A DNA stretch of 8,600 nucleotides from a virus. Taxonomy: Duplodnaviria; Heunggongvirae; Uroviricota; Caudoviricetes. This document shows positions 98 through 8,600 of this stretch, piece by piece. The DNA lies in IMG/VR virus record IMGVR_UViG_2541047679_000008, one strand, 5' to 3'. Each line of letters starts with the position of its first letter. Within the stretch, counting starts at the first letter, position 1. A program made the translations under genes and the position numbers. The notes beneath the pieces are model-generated. The model was not told where the DNA came from and did no database searches. It saw only the letters and a program-made list of their open reading frames with translations.

Positions 98-673
98 CTA
101 CGGCAGTGCTGGCCATTCAATATCCTGTGCAGTTGACGTATCAACACGGTTCAGCAACACCCGATACTTTTTCCAGGCTTCCAGCAATGAGGTTTCTTCC
201 TCCGTTGCGATTTCCAGATCTACAGCATCCTGAAGTGGCGCAATATGCTCACTGGCTACCTGCATCAGGCTGTTTTTTGTTTCTTCCGCCTCTCGGATCC
301 GGAACAGTTTTTCTGCTTCTGCATCTTTCACCCAGGCTGTGCCGTTCCACTTCTGAAACTCCCCTTCCGGCGATAACCAGGTAACATTTTCCGGTAACGG
401 ACCGAGTTCAGAAATAAATAACGCGTCCCCTGACGCTACGTCATAAACCGTTTTACCCCGATGGTCTTCAACGAGATGCCACGATGCCTTATCACTGTTG
501 AAAACAGCCACAAAGCCAGCAGGAATATCTGGTGGTGCAATATCGGTACTGTTTGCTGGCAGACCTGTATGAGGCGGAATATATGCGTCACCTTCACCAA
601 TAAATTCATTAGTTCCGGCCAGCAGATTATAAATTTTTATGGTCCGTGGTTGTTCACTCATTCTGAATGCCAT
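98..673 (-). CDS. tfa: Tail fibre assembly protein Tfa (lambda Tfa-like chaperone), 191 aa
   Basis: Translated ORF ([61 protein letters not shown]...) matches my memory of lambda Tfa almost residue for residue along its length. The ATG at 673-671 overlaps the stf stop codon (TAATG). A GAGG Shine-Dalgarno (plus-strand CCTC at 682-685) lies 8 nt upstream. Confidence 0.93.
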
Positions 674-3636
674 TATGCAAGCCTCACAATATAGTTAAAT
701 GCGATGTTTTTGACGGTGTTTTCCGCGTTACCAGCAGCGTTAACGGTGATGGTGTGTCCATGTGAACCAATCGCAACGGAGTGCGTATGAGCACCAATAC
801 CGACAGTATGCGCGTGTGCACCTGCAGATGCTGCTGTGCCGGACAGTGAATGGCTATGATTACCATCTGTACTGGTATTCGCTAACCACCCCGTAGACAT
901 ACCTACTGAGCCTTGTACACCCCAGGTATTTTGACCTGAGCTTGTATAACCATATTGATAAGTATCTTTAAAAACACTGGGGTTAAATCGACGGCCATCT
1001 CTATGGCTGTGATTACCAGCTGCATTCGTGCTGCCACTTAAACTATGGGTATGCGCACCAGTGTTATTCGTGGATTTAGTGCCGTAATCAAACGACGATG
1101 TGGTTTTCGTCCCCAAATCCGTACTGGATGCGCTGGCGCTGTGGGTATGCGATTTAATGCCGTCCTGTTCCTGAGACAATACGGCCCGACCACTGGCAGG
1201 TTTGCCCTTAATCGTCCAGCCACGCATATCAGGGATCACGCCTGACGGATAAGCGGCTGCAAGTTTCGGGTATGCAGATTTGTCAAAAGTCTGCCCCTGC
1301 ATCAGGGCATAGCCAGACGGAACGGTATCTGATGGCCACGGGATTGGTGCGCCAGGCGGATAAAACTGCTCTGATGGCGTATAGAGTGAATAAACTGTAC
1401 CGTCCGTTAACCCTTCCGGCTTATTAGCAGAATATGCTGGTGACGTATGAATCGTCACGCTGGCATTACTGGTATAATCCCATTGAATATTTACACCAGT
1501 CGCATAATTTCCGATTGCAACGTAAATATCGTAAGTATCACCAGATGTATTGACCCAGGCAAAATTTGTAAACCCTGTCGATGTGCGCTGCCATAAAGCA
1601 CCAGTAATCCCCTTCGGATTACCATTACCTGCACGTAAAACAAGTTCAGATATACCTGCCTGTTGAGGTGACCCCACGTTAAATCCAGCGCCACCAATCA
1701 ACGTAATTGAAACAACAGAACTCGCCTGTGGCATGGTTACCGTTGCTAATTTGAACCAACCAGCACCACCGCTGAATGACATTGTTGTTGAGTTAAGCGT
1801 ACCAATATCTTTCGGCGTCAGTGTTATATCCGCTGAAAGCGCCTTACCATTCACCTTACGGGCAGAAGGTACCCGACCATTCGCATTGTCATTAGCTGCT
1901 TTCACTGCTTTCGGTGTCGCAGCAAGCGTTTCAGATGTGCTGTTGGTTGCACTACTGAGCTGGACAATTCCTTTTTGTGCTGTCGTAGCGTCCTGTGCGG
2001 TGTATTTCCCGTTAGCCAGGTCATACGCGGCCTTAACGGCTTTTGGCGTTGCCGCCTGTGACTCGGAAGTGCTGTTAGTCGCACTGCTGAGCTGAACTAT
2101 CCCTTTCTGTGCTGTCGTTGCATCCTGTGCGGTGTATTTCCCGTTAGCCAGGTCATACGCGGCCTTAACGGCTTTTGGCGTTGCCGCCTGTGACTCGGAA
2201 GTGCTGTTGGTCGCACTGCTGAGCTGTACTATCCCCTTTTTCGTCGTGCTCGCATCCTCAAGCGCCACGGCGGATGCAATATCCTCTGCCCGTTTTGCCG
2301 CTGTCTCGGCGCGCGTTGCCGCGGATTCCGCCGTACTTTTGCTCTGTGCTGCCGCCGTCGCACTGCCAGCTGCCTCTGTCGCCTTCGTGGATGCTGTCGT
2401 GGCGCTGCCCTTCGCTGCGGACGCTTGTCTGGTCGCCTCATCTTTTGAAGCAGACGCAGATGATGCCGATGACGCCGCCGAACTGGCGGACGATGCGGCA
2501 GCCGTTTTTGAGGATTCTGCGCTGGTTTCCGACGCTTTCGCGTTCGTCTCGGATGTCTTCGCTGCGGAAGCAGACCTCGCTGCTGCGCTGGCCTGTACAG
2601 CGGCTTCGCCAGCCTTCGTTGTGGCTGTTGAAGCGGACGATGCAGCACTTTCTGCCGATTTTCCGGCGGCGGTGGCACTGGCTGAGGCCTGCCCGGCATT
2701 TGTTGACGCGGCGCTGGCAGATGAGGCAGCCGCTGTTTTTGAGTCTGCTGCTGCGGAGGCACTCTGTGCTGCTGCCGTCTCAGAAGACTTAGCGTTCGTC
2801 TCGGACGTTTTTGCCGCCTTCGCGGAATTTCCTGCCGCTGTTGCCGAGGAGGCTGCACTACTGGCGCTCGAGGCTGCGCTCGTTTCTGATGATTTTGCCG
2901 CCTCTTTTGAGGCCGCCGCATCCCGGGCTGAGGTGGCAGCTTCTGACGCCTTCGTGGTCGCGGCGGATGCAGAAGTGGCTGCTGATTGTTGTGACGCTGC
3001 CGCATTCGTTTCTGACGTTTTCGCCGCAGCGGCACTGGTAGCTGCCGCGCTTTTTGAGGACTCTGCAGCAGCAGCACTTTTCGATGCTTCACTGGCCTTT
3101 GTTGATGCCGTTCCTGCGCTGGAAGATGCTGACTGAGCCGACGACGCGGCCTGTCCGGCTGACGTGCTGGCTGCGCGTGCTGAGCCTGCAGCATCAGTCG
3201 CATGGGTTGCCGCCTCACGTGCTGATGTGCCGGCATCGCTGGCTGACTTCTTCGCGGCTGCCGTGTTCTGTGCCACCGCGGACGCGTTACGCGCCACCTC
3301 TTCCACCATCAGTTCAAAACGGCGCAGTGCCTCAGGACGGGCATCATCCTCCGTCATGGCACCGAGAAAATCATTCAGCGTACCGGGTCGGGAATCTTCA
3401 TACACGGTGATGGTCCCGGCATGTGACGGCGGGAATCCCTCCACCAACAGAATAACGCTGTACTGCCCGTACTCAACGTCCATGCTGTAACGCCCGGCTT
3501 CATCCGGATTTTCAGAAGCCACCGTGTTCACCAGTACCGTGGTGCTGTTACGCTTTGCCTTCAGTTGAATAGTGCAGTTCTGTATTGGTTTTCCCGCACC
3601 ATCTTTCAGCACACCTGAGATTTTTACTGCTGCCAT
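673..3636 (-). CDS. stf: Side tail fibre protein Stf, about 987 aa, intact and mosaic
   Basis: N-terminus [31 protein letters not shown]... and C-terminus ...[31 protein letters not shown] match lambda Stf as I recall it. The ORF track begins at a GTG at 3642; I prefer the ATG at 3636 because a GGAG (plus CTCC 3643-3646) then sits 6 nt upstream and the product begins like lambda Stf. Stop codon TAA at 675-673. Contains an Ala/Ser/Thr-rich shaft, a 3x 44-aa repeat, a central block with a [19 protein letters not shown] motif, and a C-terminal HxH-rich region. Confidence 0.9.
676..1155 (-). other. Stf C-terminal His-box region with repeated HxH motifs (SHTHS, GAHTHS, GNHSHR, GNHSHS, GAHAHT, GAHTHS, GSHGHT)
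   Basis: Seen directly in the translation of the last about 160 codons of stf. Equivalent HxH repeats in T4 gp37-type long tail fibre tips coordinate metal ions along the trimer axis. Confidence 0.7.
1360..1875 (-). other. Stf central block of about 172 aa ([45 protein letters not shown]...[12 protein letters not shown]) that I do not recall from lambda Stf; probable module swap
   Basis: Flanked on both sides by lambda-like sequence (44-aa repeat upstream, GAPIPWPSD...[24 protein letters not shown] downstream). The DNA here is visibly more AT-rich than the neighbouring Ala-rich shaft. The VNGKALSxDITLT motif is common in other coliphage tail fibres. Confidence 0.6.
1900..2240. repeat. 132-bp direct tandem repeat inside stf: two near-identical units at about 1971-2102 and 2103-2234, plus a diverged partial unit to about 1900
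   Basis: The string gtgcggtgtatttcccgttagccaggtcatacgcggccttaacggcttttggcgttgccgcctgtgactcggaagtgctgtt occurs at 1995 and again at 2127, a period of 132 bp. It encodes three consecutive copies of [44 protein letters not shown], the third diverged to ...[23 protein letters not shown]. Confidence 0.85.
2240..3310. repeat. Low-complexity, GC-rich Ala/Ser/Thr-rich coding region (Stf shaft) with dispersed imperfect repeats encoding KTSETNA-like motifs
   Basis: The translation is dominated by A/S/T/K/E (for example [38 protein letters not shown]). Similar DNA segments recur around 2541-2570, 2791-2820 and 3003-3030. The region spawns long spurious ORFs in other frames on both strands. Confidence 0.7.
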
Positions 3637-3642
3637 ATCCAC

Positions 3643-3700: not shown

Positions 3701-4300
3701 TCAGAACTTATAACCGACACCCACGATGAAACCGTCAGTGCGCCAGTCGCCACTGCCGGAGCCTTCATAAGCAATATCAATGGCCACGGATTCGGTCGGG
3801 TTAAACTGCACGCCAGCTCCCCACGCCAGAGACGTGTTGCTGTGGCGACCGTCATCACTTCCGGTCAGCACATCGTGCTTTTTCCCCTTGTTGTCAGTTA
3901 CGCGAAGATAATCCCCGGAGAAAGTCGACACACGGCTGTAAGCCACACCTGCCATCGCATAAGCACTGAACCATTCATTCACGCGCACAGACGGCCCCGC
4001 CATTACGCTGAACCAGCGGTTACGAACGGAATCTTCATGCCAGCGGGTATCGCTGTAACGGGTCAGCTGGCGATTCTTGTCTCCTGCATAGCTGAATGAC
4101 GTCACCAGCCCCAGTGTGTCCGTAAACTCATAACGGTATTTCACGTTAATCCCGTTCAGATTTTCGCTGCCGGGAGCGTTCGTACGGGCATGAAGATACC
4201 CTGCGCTCAGTGTGGCCTGCTGCTCAGACGCCCATGCAGGCGCACCGGATACGGCCAGACAAATGGCTGCGGACAAAATTGCTGCACAAACTTTACGCAT
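3701..4300 (-). CDS. lom: Lom-family (Ail/Lom/PagC/OmpX) outer-membrane beta-barrel protein, 199 aa, with signal peptide
   Basis: The C-terminal half (...AWGAGVQFNPTESVAIDIAYEGSGSGDWRTDGFIVGVGYKF) matches lambda Lom as I recall it; the N-terminal half differs. N-terminus MRKVCAAILSAAICLAVSGAPAWA looks like a Sec signal peptide with an AxA cleavage site. It ends in the aromatic residue (F) typical of beta-barrel outer-membrane proteins. A GAGAGG Shine-Dalgarno (plus cctctc 4306-4311) precedes the ATG at 4300. Confidence 0.92.
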   Translation of the reverse strand: MRKVCAAILSAAICLAVSGAPAWASEQQATLSAGYLHARTNAPGSENLNGINVKYRYEFTDTLGLVTSFSYAGDKNRQLTRYSDTRWHEDSVRNRWFSVMAGPSVRVNEWFSAYAMAGVAYSRVSTFSGDYLRVTDNKGKKHDVLTGSDDGRHSNTSLAWGAGVQFNPTESVAIDIAYEGSGSGDWRTDGFIVGVGYKF

Positions 4301-4370: not shown

Positions 4371-7300
4371 TCAACGAATACTGATGCCGGAAGCGGCTTT
4401 TTTGGTCACAATCACCGTACAGTCGGTGATATTGCCTGCCCCCTGATTGCCTTTCTGGAAAATCTTAAACTCCAGAGTGACGCTTCCCCTGCCACTCGGC
4501 ATATCAATAACTGCACTGTAACTACCGGGAATGGCCCCTTTAGTTTCTCTGGATGCGATTAATACGCCGTTTTTGCGAACTTCAAAACCATAACCCGTGT
4601 ATCTTGTACCTCCCGGGTTATTACCACTTCCCGGATCGCTATACGCTATTCCGTTAAAGATAATGGGCGGAATAATGATTTGACGGTCAAAGTTATGATC
4701 ATCGCTGATGGTGACTGTAACCGTCCCGTTTGGTGTTTCCGTATTACCCCACGTACCAGCCTGTTTCGGGAATGATTTGGATACAGCTTTAACGAAGTCA
4801 CCTCTGACCTGAGTCGCCTCCAGCATGCCCTTAATCGTACAGTTTTCATTTACCGTGACATTGTTGAGCGTCCCGGAGTTCGCATTCACGTTACCGCTGA
4901 TATCCGCATTTTTCGCCGTCAGCCGCCCGTCCGGTGTCAGGGAAAATGCCGGCGGATTTCCACCGCTGGTAATGGTGGGAGCCGTCAGGCGTTTCAGGAA
5001 CACGTCATTCATGAATATCTGATCACCCTGACCAACAAACATCGGTTTTGTGTTGCCATTTGCAGGATTAATCATCGCAATCCTGTCTGCCGCCAGCAGC
5101 ACCTGACTCTGCATGCCGTCAGGGGTGTTCTCAATACCGGCACCGATACCCGCAATATAAAGGCGTCCGTCCTGCATCTGCTGCAGCTTCACAGCCCACA
5201 TGCTGTTCAGGTTATTATTTGTATCAACCTGAACCTTCTGTATCTGCTGAATTGCCGCACTCTGGTCTTCCAGTTTCTTATTGACGGTCTGTGTTATTTC
5301 ATTGCTGACATCCGTTATGGACGTCCTGATTTCAGTCAGGTCAGGCGCAAGCTGACCGTTATCAATCTGCGTCCACAGCTCCTGAGCCAGATGGGTTTTC
5401 CCTATCTCGCCTTTGAAAAAATCCAGATAGCCTGATGCATCATCACTCGGCTGGCCAACAGCCTCCACGAATGCAGATTTGCCAACGGTGTTCACACTGC
5501 GAACGTAAAAATAATAATCATGGCCCGGTTTGATATTGATACTGGCGGCTATCCAGTACAGTGCCGTACCAAGATAACGCGCGCTGGTTTCAACCTGCCT
5601 GATATCCGCAATCCGCTTTTCTGAGAACCAGAACTCAAACTGTACCGTCGGATCATAAACGGCAAGATGCGGCGTGGCGGTTATCTGAAAATAGCCCGGC
5701 GTCAGCTCAATCCGCGATGGCGCTGCCGGTGCGGCAATCCGGAACGATACCGACGCCGGATCGCCCTGCTGCCCCCACGCATTTACTGCCCGGACTGTCA
5801 GCCTGTAGTTCCCCAGAGCCAGTTGTGTGAAGCGGTAAGTGGTTTCCGTCGTCCGGGCCGTGCTGACCAGCCGCTCACTGCCGTCATCCGCTGTTACGGT
5901 CAGGCGAAGCATGAAACTCACGCCCTTCACCACCTTCGGCGTGTCCCAGCGGGCCAGTACCTGATACTCCCCGCTGTCTGCGGTGACTTCGGCAGTCAGG
6001 TGCTGCACTGCTGGCGGCGTGACACCATTCACCGTGCCGCTCTGGTCGCCGTCAAAGTGCGCCCCGTTATCCACGATAGCTTCTTTTTCCGGTACATGCT
6101 GCACGGCGGTGATAGCATACGTGCCGTCGTCGTTCTCACGGATACTCACACAGCGGAACAGGCGCTGGCGCAGCGTCGGCAGCTTCAGCCCCCATACGCT
6201 GTATCCGGCAACGCCGTCAGGAACACGGCTCACTTTTACCTTCACGCCGTCGGTGACGGACTGGACCTCCACGCTGACCGGATTGCCACTTCCGTCAACC
6301 AGGCTTATCAGCGTGGTACCGGAGGATGGCAGCGTGATTTCACGGTCGAGCGTCAGCGTCCGGGTCTGGCTGTTCACCGCCAGCACGCGCCCGCCGGTGC
6401 TGATCCCCGCATAGTCATCATCGCAGATTTCAATGACATCGCCCGGCACATGGCGAAGCCCTTCCGCACCCACGCTGAAGTCCACGGTCTGCGTTTCCAG
6501 TAGTTCCGTTTTAATCAGCCACAGCCCGGCGCGGTGCGCCTGCCCCCGGCTGGTACAGCCAAAGGCATCCATCTTCGTGACGTTACGACCGTAACGGAGA
6601 ATGGCCTGCGTATCTTCAACAAGCTCTGTCGCCGTCTCCCAGCCGTTATTCGGGTCAATCCAGTTCACCTCAACGGCATTATGGCGGTCCTTCAGGGCGC
6701 TGAAGCTGTAGCGGAACGGCGCGCCATCATCCGGCATCACCACATTACTGCGGTTATAGGTCCACACCTTATCCGACGGTCGGTCCTGCACGAACGTCAG
6801 CGTCTGCCCGTTCCATACCGGCATACAGCGCATCGCCGAGCAGAAATCACTGAGAACATCCCACGCCTTACGCTGTGTGGTCAGGTAGGCATTACAGGTG
6901 ATGCGCGGCTCCGTGCCACCAAAGCCATCCGGCACCGACTGGTCGCAATTCTGGCCGATGACATACAGCGCCCATTTGTCCACATCCGCCGCACCGAGAC
7001 GCTTCCCCATGCCGTAGCGCGGATGGGTCAGCATATCCCACAGACACCAGGCCATGTTGTTGCTGTATGCCGGTTTAAACGTCCCGTCCCAGATACCGCT
7101 GTATTGCCGCGTCTGCGGGTTATAGTTCGATGGCACCTGCAGAATGCGCCCGCGAAGATGATAATTACGGCTCACCTGCTGGCTGCCGAACTGTTCCGAG
7201 TCCACCTGCACGCCGACCAGTGCCGTGTTCGGGTAGCACTGTTTCACATCGATGATTTCGGTGTATGACGACCAGAGCGTTTTGTTCTGCAGCTGGTCTG

Positions 7301-7868
7301 TGGTGCTGTCCGGCGTCATTCTGCGCATCCGGATATTAAACGGGCGCGGCGGCAGGTTATCCACCACCACCGAGGCCAGATACTGCGAGGTGGTTTTGCC
7401 CTTAATGGTGATGTCTTTTTCCGTCACCCAGCCACCATTACGCTGTATCTGAACCAGCAGGCGAACTTCCGACGGATTCCGGTCCCCCTTTGAGGTGGTT
7501 TCCACCAGTGCCTGCACACCGAAGGTAAAGCGCAGTCGGTCGATGTTTGCCGACGTGATGGCGCGGGTGATCGGCGTGTCGTATTTCACTTCCGTACCCA
7601 GCACCGTCTCGGAACCGGAGGATTCAAATCCCTCCGGCGGAGTCTGCTCCTGCTCACCAGCCCGGAACACTACCGTGACACCGGCGATGTTGCTATTCCC
7701 ATCACTGTCCAGCACCGGCGTACTGTTCAGCAGCACGCTTTTTAATCCATCCACCGGACCTTCAATCGGCCCTTCGCTGATGGCATCGATCACACTCAGT
7801 AACTGCGTGGATTTCAGGTTGTCCTTCGCTTCGCGCGGGGTATGCCCCTTACTGCTGCCTTTACCCAT
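4371..7868 (-). CDS. J: Tail tip / central tail fibre host specificity protein J, 1165 aa
   Basis: N-terminus [54 protein letters not shown]... matches lambda J as I recall it. Length is close to lambda J (about 1130 aa). Fibronectin-III-like segments lie at about 5480-6030 ([31 protein letters not shown]...[14 protein letters not shown]). A GGAG Shine-Dalgarno (plus ctcc 7877-7880) sits 8 nt upstream of the ATG at 7868. Confidence 0.95.
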
Positions 7869-7928: not shown

Positions 7929-8600
7929 TCAGCGACCAATCACCACAACCTGACCACCATCCCCTTCGTCTGCCGTGCTGATCTCCTGAGAAACCACCCG
8001 CGACCCCACACGCATTTCACCGTACAGAACAGGCAAAACATTGCCCTGGGCAACCATGTTATCCAGTGAGGAGAAATAGGTGTTCTGCTTACCGTTATCC
8101 GTTGTCTGTGTGCGGGGAGTTCTGGCTTTCGGTGCCAGCATCTGCGCCACACCACCGAGCACCATACTGGCACCGAGAGAAAACAGGATGCCGGTCATAC
8201 CACCGGCCCCAATGGCTGCCCCCCATGCTGCAAGGGTGGCTCCGGCGGTAAAGAATGATCCGGCAATGGCGGCAGCCCCCAGGACAATCTGGAATACGCC
8301 ACCTGACTTGGCCCCGGCGACTCTGGGAACGATATGAATCACAGCGCCGTCAGGCAGAGCCTCATGTAACTGCGCCGTTAACCCGGACGTGCTGACGTCC
8401 CGCCCGGCAATCCGTACCTGATACCAGCCGTCGCTCAGTTTCTGACGAAACGAAGGGAGCTGTGTGGCCAGCGCCCGGATGGCTTCAGCCCCCGTTTTCA
8501 CACGAAGGTCGATGCGGCGGCCAAATCGTTGTAAATCCCCGTAAAGGCAGATGCGCGCCATGCCCGGTGACGCCAGAGGGAGTGTGTGCGTCGCTGCCAT
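7929..8600 (-). CDS. I: Tail tip assembly protein I, 223 aa; apparently complete, with its ATG on the final bases of the window
   Basis: The translation MAATHTLPLASPGMARICLYGDLQRFGRRIDLRVKTGAEAIRALATQLP...VSQEISTADEGDGGQVVVIGR matches lambda gpI in sequence and length as I recall it. It has the ubiquitin-like N-terminal region and hydrophobic Gly/Ala-rich centre typical of gpI. The ribosome-binding site lies outside the window. Confidence 0.92.
   Translation of the reverse strand: MAATHTLPLASPGMARICLYGDLQRFGRRIDLRVKTGAEAIRALATQLPSFRQKLSDGWYQVRIAGRDVSTSGLTAQLHEALPDGAVIHIVPRVAGAKSGGVFQIVLGAAAIAGSFFTAGATLAAWGAAIGAGGMTGILFSLGASMVLGGVAQMLAPKARTPRTQTTDNGKQNTYFSSLDNMVAQGNVLPVLYGEMRVGSRVVSQEISTADEGDGGQVVVIGR

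Follow-up and report, generated by a model that had tools for sequence, protein, structure and literature searches.

The side tail fibre gene (stf) of this E. coli prophage carries an in-frame repeat of 132 bp, which raises the question of how the repeat changes in length and whether its near-identical units reflect a recent duplication. The window, i.e., the whole 8,600-nucleotide stretch analysed here, holds the complete gene. Our analysis identifies the repeat as a Phage_fiber_2 (Pf2) array and makes it likely that the array gains and loses units by unequal recombination or slippage and is further shaped by gene conversion and mosaic splicing.

The gene encodes a lambda-type side tail fibre protein (Table 1). 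Its RefSeq start is the ATG at 3633, and the mechanically called ORF runs on to a GTG at 3642. In Pfam, the product matches the PF08400 N-terminal domain (E 2e-70), PF03406 three times and the PF07484 collar, and the annotation of E. coli IAI1 names it a prophage tail fiber N-terminal domain-containing protein. ORFs, Pfam matches and the IAI1 and lambda annotations give the gene order J-lom-stf-tfa, with the Tfa chaperone directly downstream. Side tail fibres of the lambda type are characterised by trimeric assembly on the virion and by faster adsorption. The shaft of the protein contains internal repeats spaced at multiples of 21 nt, corresponding to heptads (231, 105, 42, 126, 252, 84, 315, 567 and 420 nt); its description as PCoil follows PMC3368898. 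An Rfam scan returned IS009, inside tfa, as its sole match, and none in the Pf2 array. The host prophage, at the Qin site, may be defective.

Table 1. Features of the stf-tfa region, in window coordinates
Feature	Coordinates	Strand	Basis or remark
stf, lambda-type side tail fibre gene	673..3633	-	ORF list and Pfam
Prophage tail fibre N-terminal domain (PfN, PF08400)	3232..3630	-	Pfam, aa 5-137
Ala/Ser-rich shaft, probable coiled coil, between N-terminal domain and Pf2 array	2263..3231	-	heptad-spaced repeats
Lead-in (..EDASTTK)	2239..2258	-	partly homologous to end of inter-unit linker (QDATTAQ); in-register comparison
Pf2 unit 1 (u1)	2107..2238	-	aa 469-512; 32-codon core and 12-codon linker; Pfam best stretch aa 465-505
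Pf2 unit 2 (u2)	1975..2106	-	aa 513-556
Pf2 unit 3 (u3), core only	1879..1974	-	aa 557-588; followed by unrelated receptor-binding half of fibre
tfa, tail fibre assembly chaperone	98..673	-	PF02413 E 3.1e-44; annotated tfaQ in IAI1

The repeat in stf is genuine, with three in-register 44-codon units at 1879-2258 on the minus strand. The protein reads the 44-residue unit twice and then a 32-residue core, positioned between the N-terminal domain and shaft on one side and the C-terminal receptor-binding half on the other. A preliminary description of the window had placed the array at 1900-2240, which finds it and stops slightly short at the u3 end. The 132-bp periodicity that it proposed is present: on self-comparison, the best 100-nt window is 99/100 identical at offset 132 and 72/100 at offset 264, with at most 43/100 identity at offsets that are not multiples of 132. 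Tandem Repeats Finder places the repeat at 1937-2241, with a period of 132, 2.3 copies, 92% matches and a score of 531, and in-register similarity begins in the lead-in, ~20 nt before u1. The array was also correctly described as two nearly identical units and a diverged third. u1 and u2 encode identical protein and differ at 6 of 132 bases (95.5% DNA identity), all of them third-codon and synonymous, at unit positions 3, 12, 30, 117, 120 and 132; the example singled out earlier, ttagtcgc versus ttggtcgc, is the real synonymous difference at position 30. Between u3 and u1, 54 of 132 positions differ, with ~71% DNA identity across the first 93 nt. Despite this DNA divergence of ~30%, u3 retains the protein motif, and 20 of the 24 codons changed between u1 and u3 in the 32-codon core are changed synonymously.

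Membership of PF03406 is clear (E 9.4e-55, 182.4 bits against a cut-off of 22, over three stretches). This family consists of tandem units of ~40 residues in tail fibre proteins, and the window protein has three with an exact 44-aa period. The same period is constant across 80 IMG/VR loci with 2-7 units, as counted with an HMM trained on 96 distinct unit sequences. An AlphaFold2 monomer of aa 451-640 gives a mean pLDDT of 38.4 and a pTM of 0.18, with only a weak short helix per unit. In a PDB sequence search, the only proteins matching one unit were the phage Mu fibre proteins S and S'. Published Mu models span the fibre N- and C-termini, and the Mu cryo-EM paper models the fibre at its N-terminus only; no solved structure of the Pf2 motif was found in that search or that paper. 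Ghosh et al. 2012 noted Pf2 in lambda Stf and prophage fibres, described its structure and function as little known, and did not discuss variation in unit number (PMC3368898). Our literature searches found no paper containing the unit peptide strings and no study of variable Pf2 unit number. The Pf2 array belongs to a known, catalogued family and shows the expected, ordinary behaviour of a tandem repeat.

Comparison with known fibres separates what is shared from what varies. Lambda Stf (Ur-lambda, 774 aa) has the same J-lom-stf-tfa order, PfN, Ala/Ser-rich shaft, Pf2, C-terminal end and downstream Tfa. However, it carries exactly one Pf2 unit, as the preliminary description had stated, and a different segment behind it (VVMDETNRKAPL…). 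The window protein, with three units, is 215 aa longer, and 88 aa of this excess correspond to the two extra units. StfR of the K-12 Rac prophage and other cryptic-prophage Stf homologues belong to the same family, with the same lead-in and a Pin-type invertase gene beside tfa. In contrast to the window, StfR has a single unit and then a different distal half (NAEKRLQKDQNGADI…), and DNA homology between the two ends at unit position 87 of the first unit. In the EHEC EPclB collagen-like proteins, Pf2 lies between two collagen segments, whereas in the window it lies behind a coiled-coil shaft (Ghosh et al. 2012, PMC3368898). The phage Mu tail fibre protein S (gp49; PDB 5YVQ, 9KI1, 8JU3) has one unit (KGLVQLTSATDSPSETLAATAKAVKIAMDNAN), and a P2-like gpH-type fibre in one complete genome has five, with a 44-aa period. 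The Mu S and P2-like proteins differ from the window protein in being myovirus baseplate fibres with another N-terminal attachment domain.

Unit number also varies among close relatives of the window. Among complete E. coli genomes, alleles that share the same flanking sequence contain 1, 2, 3 or 4 units, and the steps between them are always whole multiples of 132 bp. Two units occur in AP025214.2, CP035817.1, CP048107.1, CP053080.1, CP148746.1 and CP083880.1, and one unit in CP139182.1. At least 15 finished genomes, ATCC 11775, S88, UM146 and APEC O1 among them, match a four-unit allele at 100% identity. The prophages L002 and L003 are separated by 19 substitutions in 5.8 kb and, apart from these, by a single clean indel of 132 bp. 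Hybrid units occupy the junctions and reveal five or more different crossover intervals, among them unit positions 121-131, 31-116 and 13-29 and a hybrid of O157-type u1 and u2. In the 2-unit alleles, the first unit starts as u1 and ends as u2, with several different crossover points, and the 4-unit allele includes a unit with the start of u3 and the remainder of u2. These alleles and their hybrid junctions bear out the earlier proposal that whole units are gained and lost without breaking the frame; related prophages do not share a single copy number with diverged units. The proposed term hotspot is supported by the natural variants and holds in a relative sense only. It may overstate the case, since three units remain the majority state (30/35 evenly sampled full-length alleles, the other 5/35 having two) and since the observations are static alleles and not rates. 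Among alleles 95-100% identical, three units is the stable majority state.

That either the repeat or the number of its copies arose as an artefact of assembly is barely conceivable. Short-read assemblies do break at Pf2 arrays, with many database proteins marked 'partial' at contig ends, and two IMG/VR draft alleles of 5 and 7 units (L026 and L030) were not found in complete E. coli genomes, where their best matches are 264 nt shorter. These two alleles may be assembly errors and are therefore not firm evidence. Against an artefact in the window, 7 complete genomes, the finished E. coli IAI1 among them, share its 801-nt region at 100% identity, and the three-unit span recurs in all of the best 60 matches and in 30 of 35 evenly sampled full-length matches. 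More than 1,100 complete genomes contain a full-length homologue. Assembly error is also unlikely for the alleles with two and four units, because several come from Sanger-finished genomes.

The edges of the units are recurrent mosaic junctions, P2-like fibres included. Partial matches break off at unit edges (query positions 212, 299, 431 and 568), and the window differs from L002 by 126 mismatches upstream of the array and by none from the array through the end of tfa. In the five-unit P2-like fibre, the last three units and the distal half match O157-type Stf at the DNA level. This match is in line with the horizontal exchange of fibre segments between unrelated phages described by Haggard-Ljungquist 1992 and Sandmeier 1992/1994, as cited in PMC3945230.

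The few differences between u1 and u2 had been taken as a sign of recent duplication, with u2 a fresh copy of u1 and the six differences mutations accumulated since. This reading has the high u1/u2 identity at the DNA and protein levels in its favour, together with the much greater divergence of u3 and the existence of 2-unit alleles that could represent the state before duplication. The pattern of the differences, however, speaks against it. All six are confined to the unit edges, flanking an 86-nt identical centre (clustering P about 0.008). Five of them recur, base for base and position for position, in the u2 of O157-type alleles despite its strong divergence, and independent mutation would not give such agreement. 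In addition, the hybrid first units of the 2-unit alleles fit deletions from three units to two and not an ancestral state. A recent duplication is thus very unlikely, and the shared edge variants largely refute it. Because these edge differences are shared with O157-type u2, the three-unit array predates the split of window-type and O157-type alleles.

An older array leaves the near-identity of u1 and u2 to be explained. Protein-level selection alone does not account for it, because synonymous sites are free to drift, as the codon changes between u1 and u3 illustrate. Between the window and O157-type alleles, divergence is concentrated in the centre of u2 (21/104, 20%) compared with 17/697 (2.4%) elsewhere (Fisher p = 1.6e-10), and the T at position 30 of window u2 is the u1 state in O157-type, phi80-like and P2-like arrays. 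Unit positions 13-116 of window u2 are probably a gene-conversion tract copied from u1. The direction is the parsimonious one, and a foreign patch introduced into O157-type u2 would yield the same pattern. In this alternative, the window-type array with its similar u1 and u2 is the older form, the centre of O157-type u2 was imported from another fibre gene, and the window lineage underwent no conversion. Patchy divergence itself gives no direction, and a short u3-like stretch at unit positions 39-50 shows that O157-type u2 is itself a mosaic. Nevertheless, the window-type patch has a donor in cis, namely u1, while the O157-type patch has no identified foreign donor. The u2 of O157-type alleles also occurs with many flanks, including the P2-like fibre and other downstream modules, whereas window-type u2 was observed only in the window-type clade. 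The O157-type triple of u1, u2 and u3 is the more widespread and probably the older form, because it is also found in the P2-like fibre. Import into O157-type u2 therefore appears unlikely, if less so than the other alternatives considered here, and conversion of window u2 by u1 is preferred.

Taken together, these observations point to a likely mode of evolution for the array. Its long, direct, in-frame units, with an 86-nt perfect match between u1 and u2, probably serve as substrates for unequal homologous recombination or replication slippage; such events insert or delete complete 44-residue modules and produce hybrids at the junctions. The molecular pathway may involve RecA, a phage recombinase or slippage. 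Units probably also undergo non-reciprocal gene conversion; the centre of u2 was most likely overwritten by u1, which would explain the near-identity even if the duplication is not fresh. The conserved core of Pf2 probably serves, in addition, as a shared patch of homology that joins different N- and C-terminal fibre halves, including exchange between lambdoid and P2-like phages.

Two other sources of variation were considered. A simple-sequence contingency locus is ruled out, as the unit is 132 nt and natural variants differ by whole units, in frame. The array consists of direct repeats and does not fit invertase-driven switching of the Gin/Cin/Pin kind. In IAI1, pinQ lies beyond tfa, but there is a single stf-tfa set and no alternative segment, and an invertase is unnecessary to explain the array. 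A closer parallel is the alpha C protein of group B streptococci, in which long, near-identical, in-frame units are gained or lost by recombination or slippage. The window array is alike in its frame-preserving change of unit number and is shorter. In bacterial surface arrays such as alpha C, which are longer, length variation has a demonstrated phenotype, immune escape.

Whether unit number matters to the phage is a separate issue. Unit number could affect fibre length or host range, and it might be a selected tuner of length and reach, matched to structures on the host surface, instead of a neutral by-product of instability. Every variant is in frame with its genes intact, particular unit numbers are fixed in lineages (e.g., four units across ST95-type strains), and arrays of 2-5 units recur widely among fibres of different types. 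Yet nothing in these data ties unit number to host or phenotype, purifying selection alone also predicts in-frame survival, and many such Qin-site prophages may be defective, which makes selection on the fibre uncertain. Adaptive tuning is thus improbable on present evidence. A broader proposal, that the array is a selected evolvability module, acting both as a universal splice point for exchanging receptor-binding halves and as a spacer tuned to O-antigen or capsule thickness, draws its splice-point role from DNA-level conservation across lambdoid and P2-like phages; as a whole it is more doubtful still.

How fast a phage adsorbs, and to which hosts, depends on its side tail fibres. For prophage annotation it is relevant that short-read assemblies break at the array, with partial and misnamed proteins as a result. 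Chimeras of lambda Stf are now being engineered for use in delivery vectors (PMC11338833). Because whole Pf2 units come and go naturally, the unit edges provide practical, nature-tested fusion points for fibre engineering, and the number of units is a candidate parameter for adsorption.

The window belongs to a lambdoid prophage, of which it covers the tail-fibre end, and every gene of the window lies on the minus strand as judged from ORFs and Pfam matches. Within stf, Tandem Repeats Finder detects a period of 132 at 1937-2241 (2.3 copies, 92% matches, score 531), and self-comparison of the window gives 99/100 identity at offset 132 versus at most 43/100 at offsets that are not multiples of 132. 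The in-frame 132-bp repeat proposed in the preliminary description is thus borne out, as is the single-base difference between units that it gave as an example. The first two units in coding sense, u1 and u2, have identical translations of 44 residues; the six bases that distinguish them are all at third codon positions (unit positions 3, 12, 30, 117, 120 and 132). The third unit, u3, keeps the protein core, yet 24 of its 32 codons are changed relative to u1, 20 of them synonymously. Partial linker homology of ~20 nt precedes u1.

Genes of the window and units of the stf repeat array
Feature	Position	Strand	Basis
tail assembly gene	7929-8600	-	ORFs, Pfam
J	4371-7868	-	ORFs, Pfam
lom	3701-4300	-	ORFs, Pfam
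stf, 986-989 aa	673-3633 (3642 for the mechanical ORF)	-	ORFs, Pfam
u1	2238..2107	-	in-register comparison
u2	2106..1975	-	in-register comparison
u3, 32-codon core	1974..1879	-	in-register comparison
tfa, Tfa chaperone gene, after stf	98-673	-	ORFs, Pfam

The units belong to Pfam PF03406 (Phage_fiber_2; three matches, 182 bits, cut-off 22), the "Pf2" domain of Ghosh et al. 2012, of whose structure and function little is known (PMC3368898). The Stf protein also features a PF08400 prophage tail-fibre N-terminal domain, an Ala/Ser-rich shaft, a PF07484 collar and a lambda-like C-terminal end. In contrast to the three units of the window, K-12 StfR has one, as does Ur-lambda Stf, in agreement with the single lambda copy given in the preliminary description. 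Among PDB entries, only the phage Mu fibre proteins S and S' are related by sequence, with one unit in each, and an AF2 monomer model of the array (pLDDT 38) gives no usable unit structure. His-rich boxes (SHTHS, GAHTHS, GNHSHR, GNHSHS, GAHAHT, GAHTHS, GSHGHT), of a type also present in lambda Stf, recur in the C-terminal region at 680-1060, with only a borderline PF03335 match (20 bits, equal to the cut-off).

The repeat region is 100% identical in IAI1 and six other complete E. coli genomes. In IAI1 the prophage occupies the Qin site, with tfaQ, pinQ, ydfK and ydfJ past the window's start. The serine invertase gene pinQ adjoins tfaQ at 8451-9041 of the IAI1 locus (L001), just past window position 1. 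This locus holds a single stf-tfa set without an alternative inverted fibre segment, and looks like a remnant of an invertible host-range switch. An Rfam RF02111 (IS009) match at 132-330 on the minus strand (226.7 bits, gathering score 117) lies wholly within the tfa coding sequence; the IS009 family itself may have been derived from a conserved segment of coding sequence.

Unit number varies among relatives. An 801-nt query spanning the array and both flanks is matched over 80% or more of its length in 1,118 of the 5,426 complete E. coli genomes. The best 60 of the 1,118 matches span exactly 801 nt, or three units. In an even sample of 35 full-length alleles from across the ranking, 30 spanned 801 nt and five spanned 667-669 nt, corresponding to two units; a separate sample contained two units in 2 of 18. 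Among fetched loci with the same flanks, L003, L005 and L092-L095 have two units and L006 has one. At least 15 finished genomes, including ATCC 11775, S88, UM146, IHE3034 and APEC O1, carry a four-unit allele that aligns in one piece at 100% identity. Comparison across related prophages therefore gives one to four units at the same flanks in complete genomes. The 44-aa period holds throughout 80 IMG/VR loci with two (6 loci), three (44), four (24), five (5) or seven (1) units, a set biased by its selection for similarity to the three-unit query. The five- and seven-unit draft alleles (Stf-flank, P2-like) were not found in complete genomes, which do hold P2-like fibres with five and four units.

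Short-read assemblies are broken by the array, which also propagates wrong protein names. The best database protein matches are mostly 'partial', and Pf2-unit fragments at contig ends (P0013, P0027, P0031, P0052, P0072, P0091) are publicly named 'short-chain fatty acid transporter, partial' or 'antitermination protein, partial'. The C-terminus of another match, P0005, RKLSRLHMTWLTG…, is an out-of-frame repeat reading resembling the window's spurious 60-aa ORF (1902-2084, minus strand, …RPRMTWLTG…), which suggests that an array on this ~97-kb contig, itself perhaps a P1-like phage-plasmid, contains a frameshift or a sequencing error.

Every two-unit allele opens with a chimeric unit that begins as u1 type and finishes as u2 type. 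The crossover interval lies at unit positions 121-131 in L003, 13-29 in L058 and 31-116 in L060, the last also in L005, L061, L063, L092 and L095 on a different parental background; in L093 the chimera joins u1 and u2 of the O157-type array. These alleles represent at least five independent three-to-two contractions. In the four-unit allele, one unit begins like u3 and continues like u2, as predicted for a reciprocal product of unequal exchange. L003 differs from the three-unit locus L002 (CP128877.1) by 19 substitutions in 5.8 kb and one clean 132-bp indel, so unit changes arise within the time in which sequences diverge by some tenths of a percent. Between u1 and u2, a run of 86 nt matches perfectly in register, more than the ~25-30 bp that RecA needs to recombine DNA efficiently. 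Rearrangement of tandem repeats this long also proceeds without RecA, through replication slippage or sister-strand exchange. Diverged homology is tolerated by phage Rad52-like recombinases (PMC3945230). The natural hybrid alleles and the varying unit number support the proposal that the array is, in a relative sense, a rearrangement hotspot. Repeat family, gene and mechanism are all of kinds already known.

A second repeat system able to alter protein length is present in the Ala/Ser-rich region of stf (2263-3231), where diverged direct repeats are spaced 42, 84, 105, 126, 231, 252, 315, 420 and 567 nt apart, all multiples of 21 nt (7 codons). This pattern fits a putative heptad coiled-coil shaft varying in heptad steps, as described for PCoil domains (Ghosh et al. 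2012, PMC3368898).

The similarity of u1 and u2 had been attributed to recent duplication, which is probably wrong. Their six differences fall in codons 1, 4, 10 and 39, 40, 44, leaving a difference-free run of 28 codons (P ~0.008 for six third positions drawn at random), and at five of the six positions the window u2 shares its base with the strongly diverged O157-type u2. Between the two allele types, 21 of 104 sites differ at u2 positions 13-116, versus 17 of 697 in the rest of the 801 nt (Fisher p = 1.6e-10). The shared edge bases and patchy divergence argue that u2 is orthologous in both types, and thus that the array already had three units before the two types diverged. A patch of ~100 nt in u2 was replaced in one lineage. 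This patch could possibly have been imported from a foreign source into the O157-type u2. It is nevertheless more likely that u1 converted u2 in the window lineage, because the donor is in cis, T at position 30 of the window u2 is the u1 state in O157-type, phi80-like and P2-like arrays, and the O157-type u1-u2-u3 triple is known from more contexts, including a P2-like fibre.

The array also coincides with module boundaries. Partial matches in other genomes stop at query positions 212, 299, 431 and 568, corresponding to the u1 start, u1 position 87, u2 position 87 and u3 position 92. When the window is compared with L002, the ~2.05 kb upstream of the array, in lom and the 5' half of stf, contains 126 mismatches, versus zero in ~2.15 kb from the array through the end of tfa; a sharp recombination breakpoint lies at ~2240-2299. 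In CP113486.1 (L090, 1126-3258), a P2-like myovirus fibre carries five Pf2 units, of which units 3-5, with the distal half, match units 1-3 and the distal half of O157-type lambdoid Stf at the DNA level, a case of fibre parts being exchanged between phages of different types. Together, the match ends, the L002 breakpoint and the P2-like sharing indicate that the Pf2 core is a recurrent joint for swapping fibre halves, in agreement with older work on horizontal exchange of tail-fibre parts, as cited in PMC3945230 (its references 72-74).
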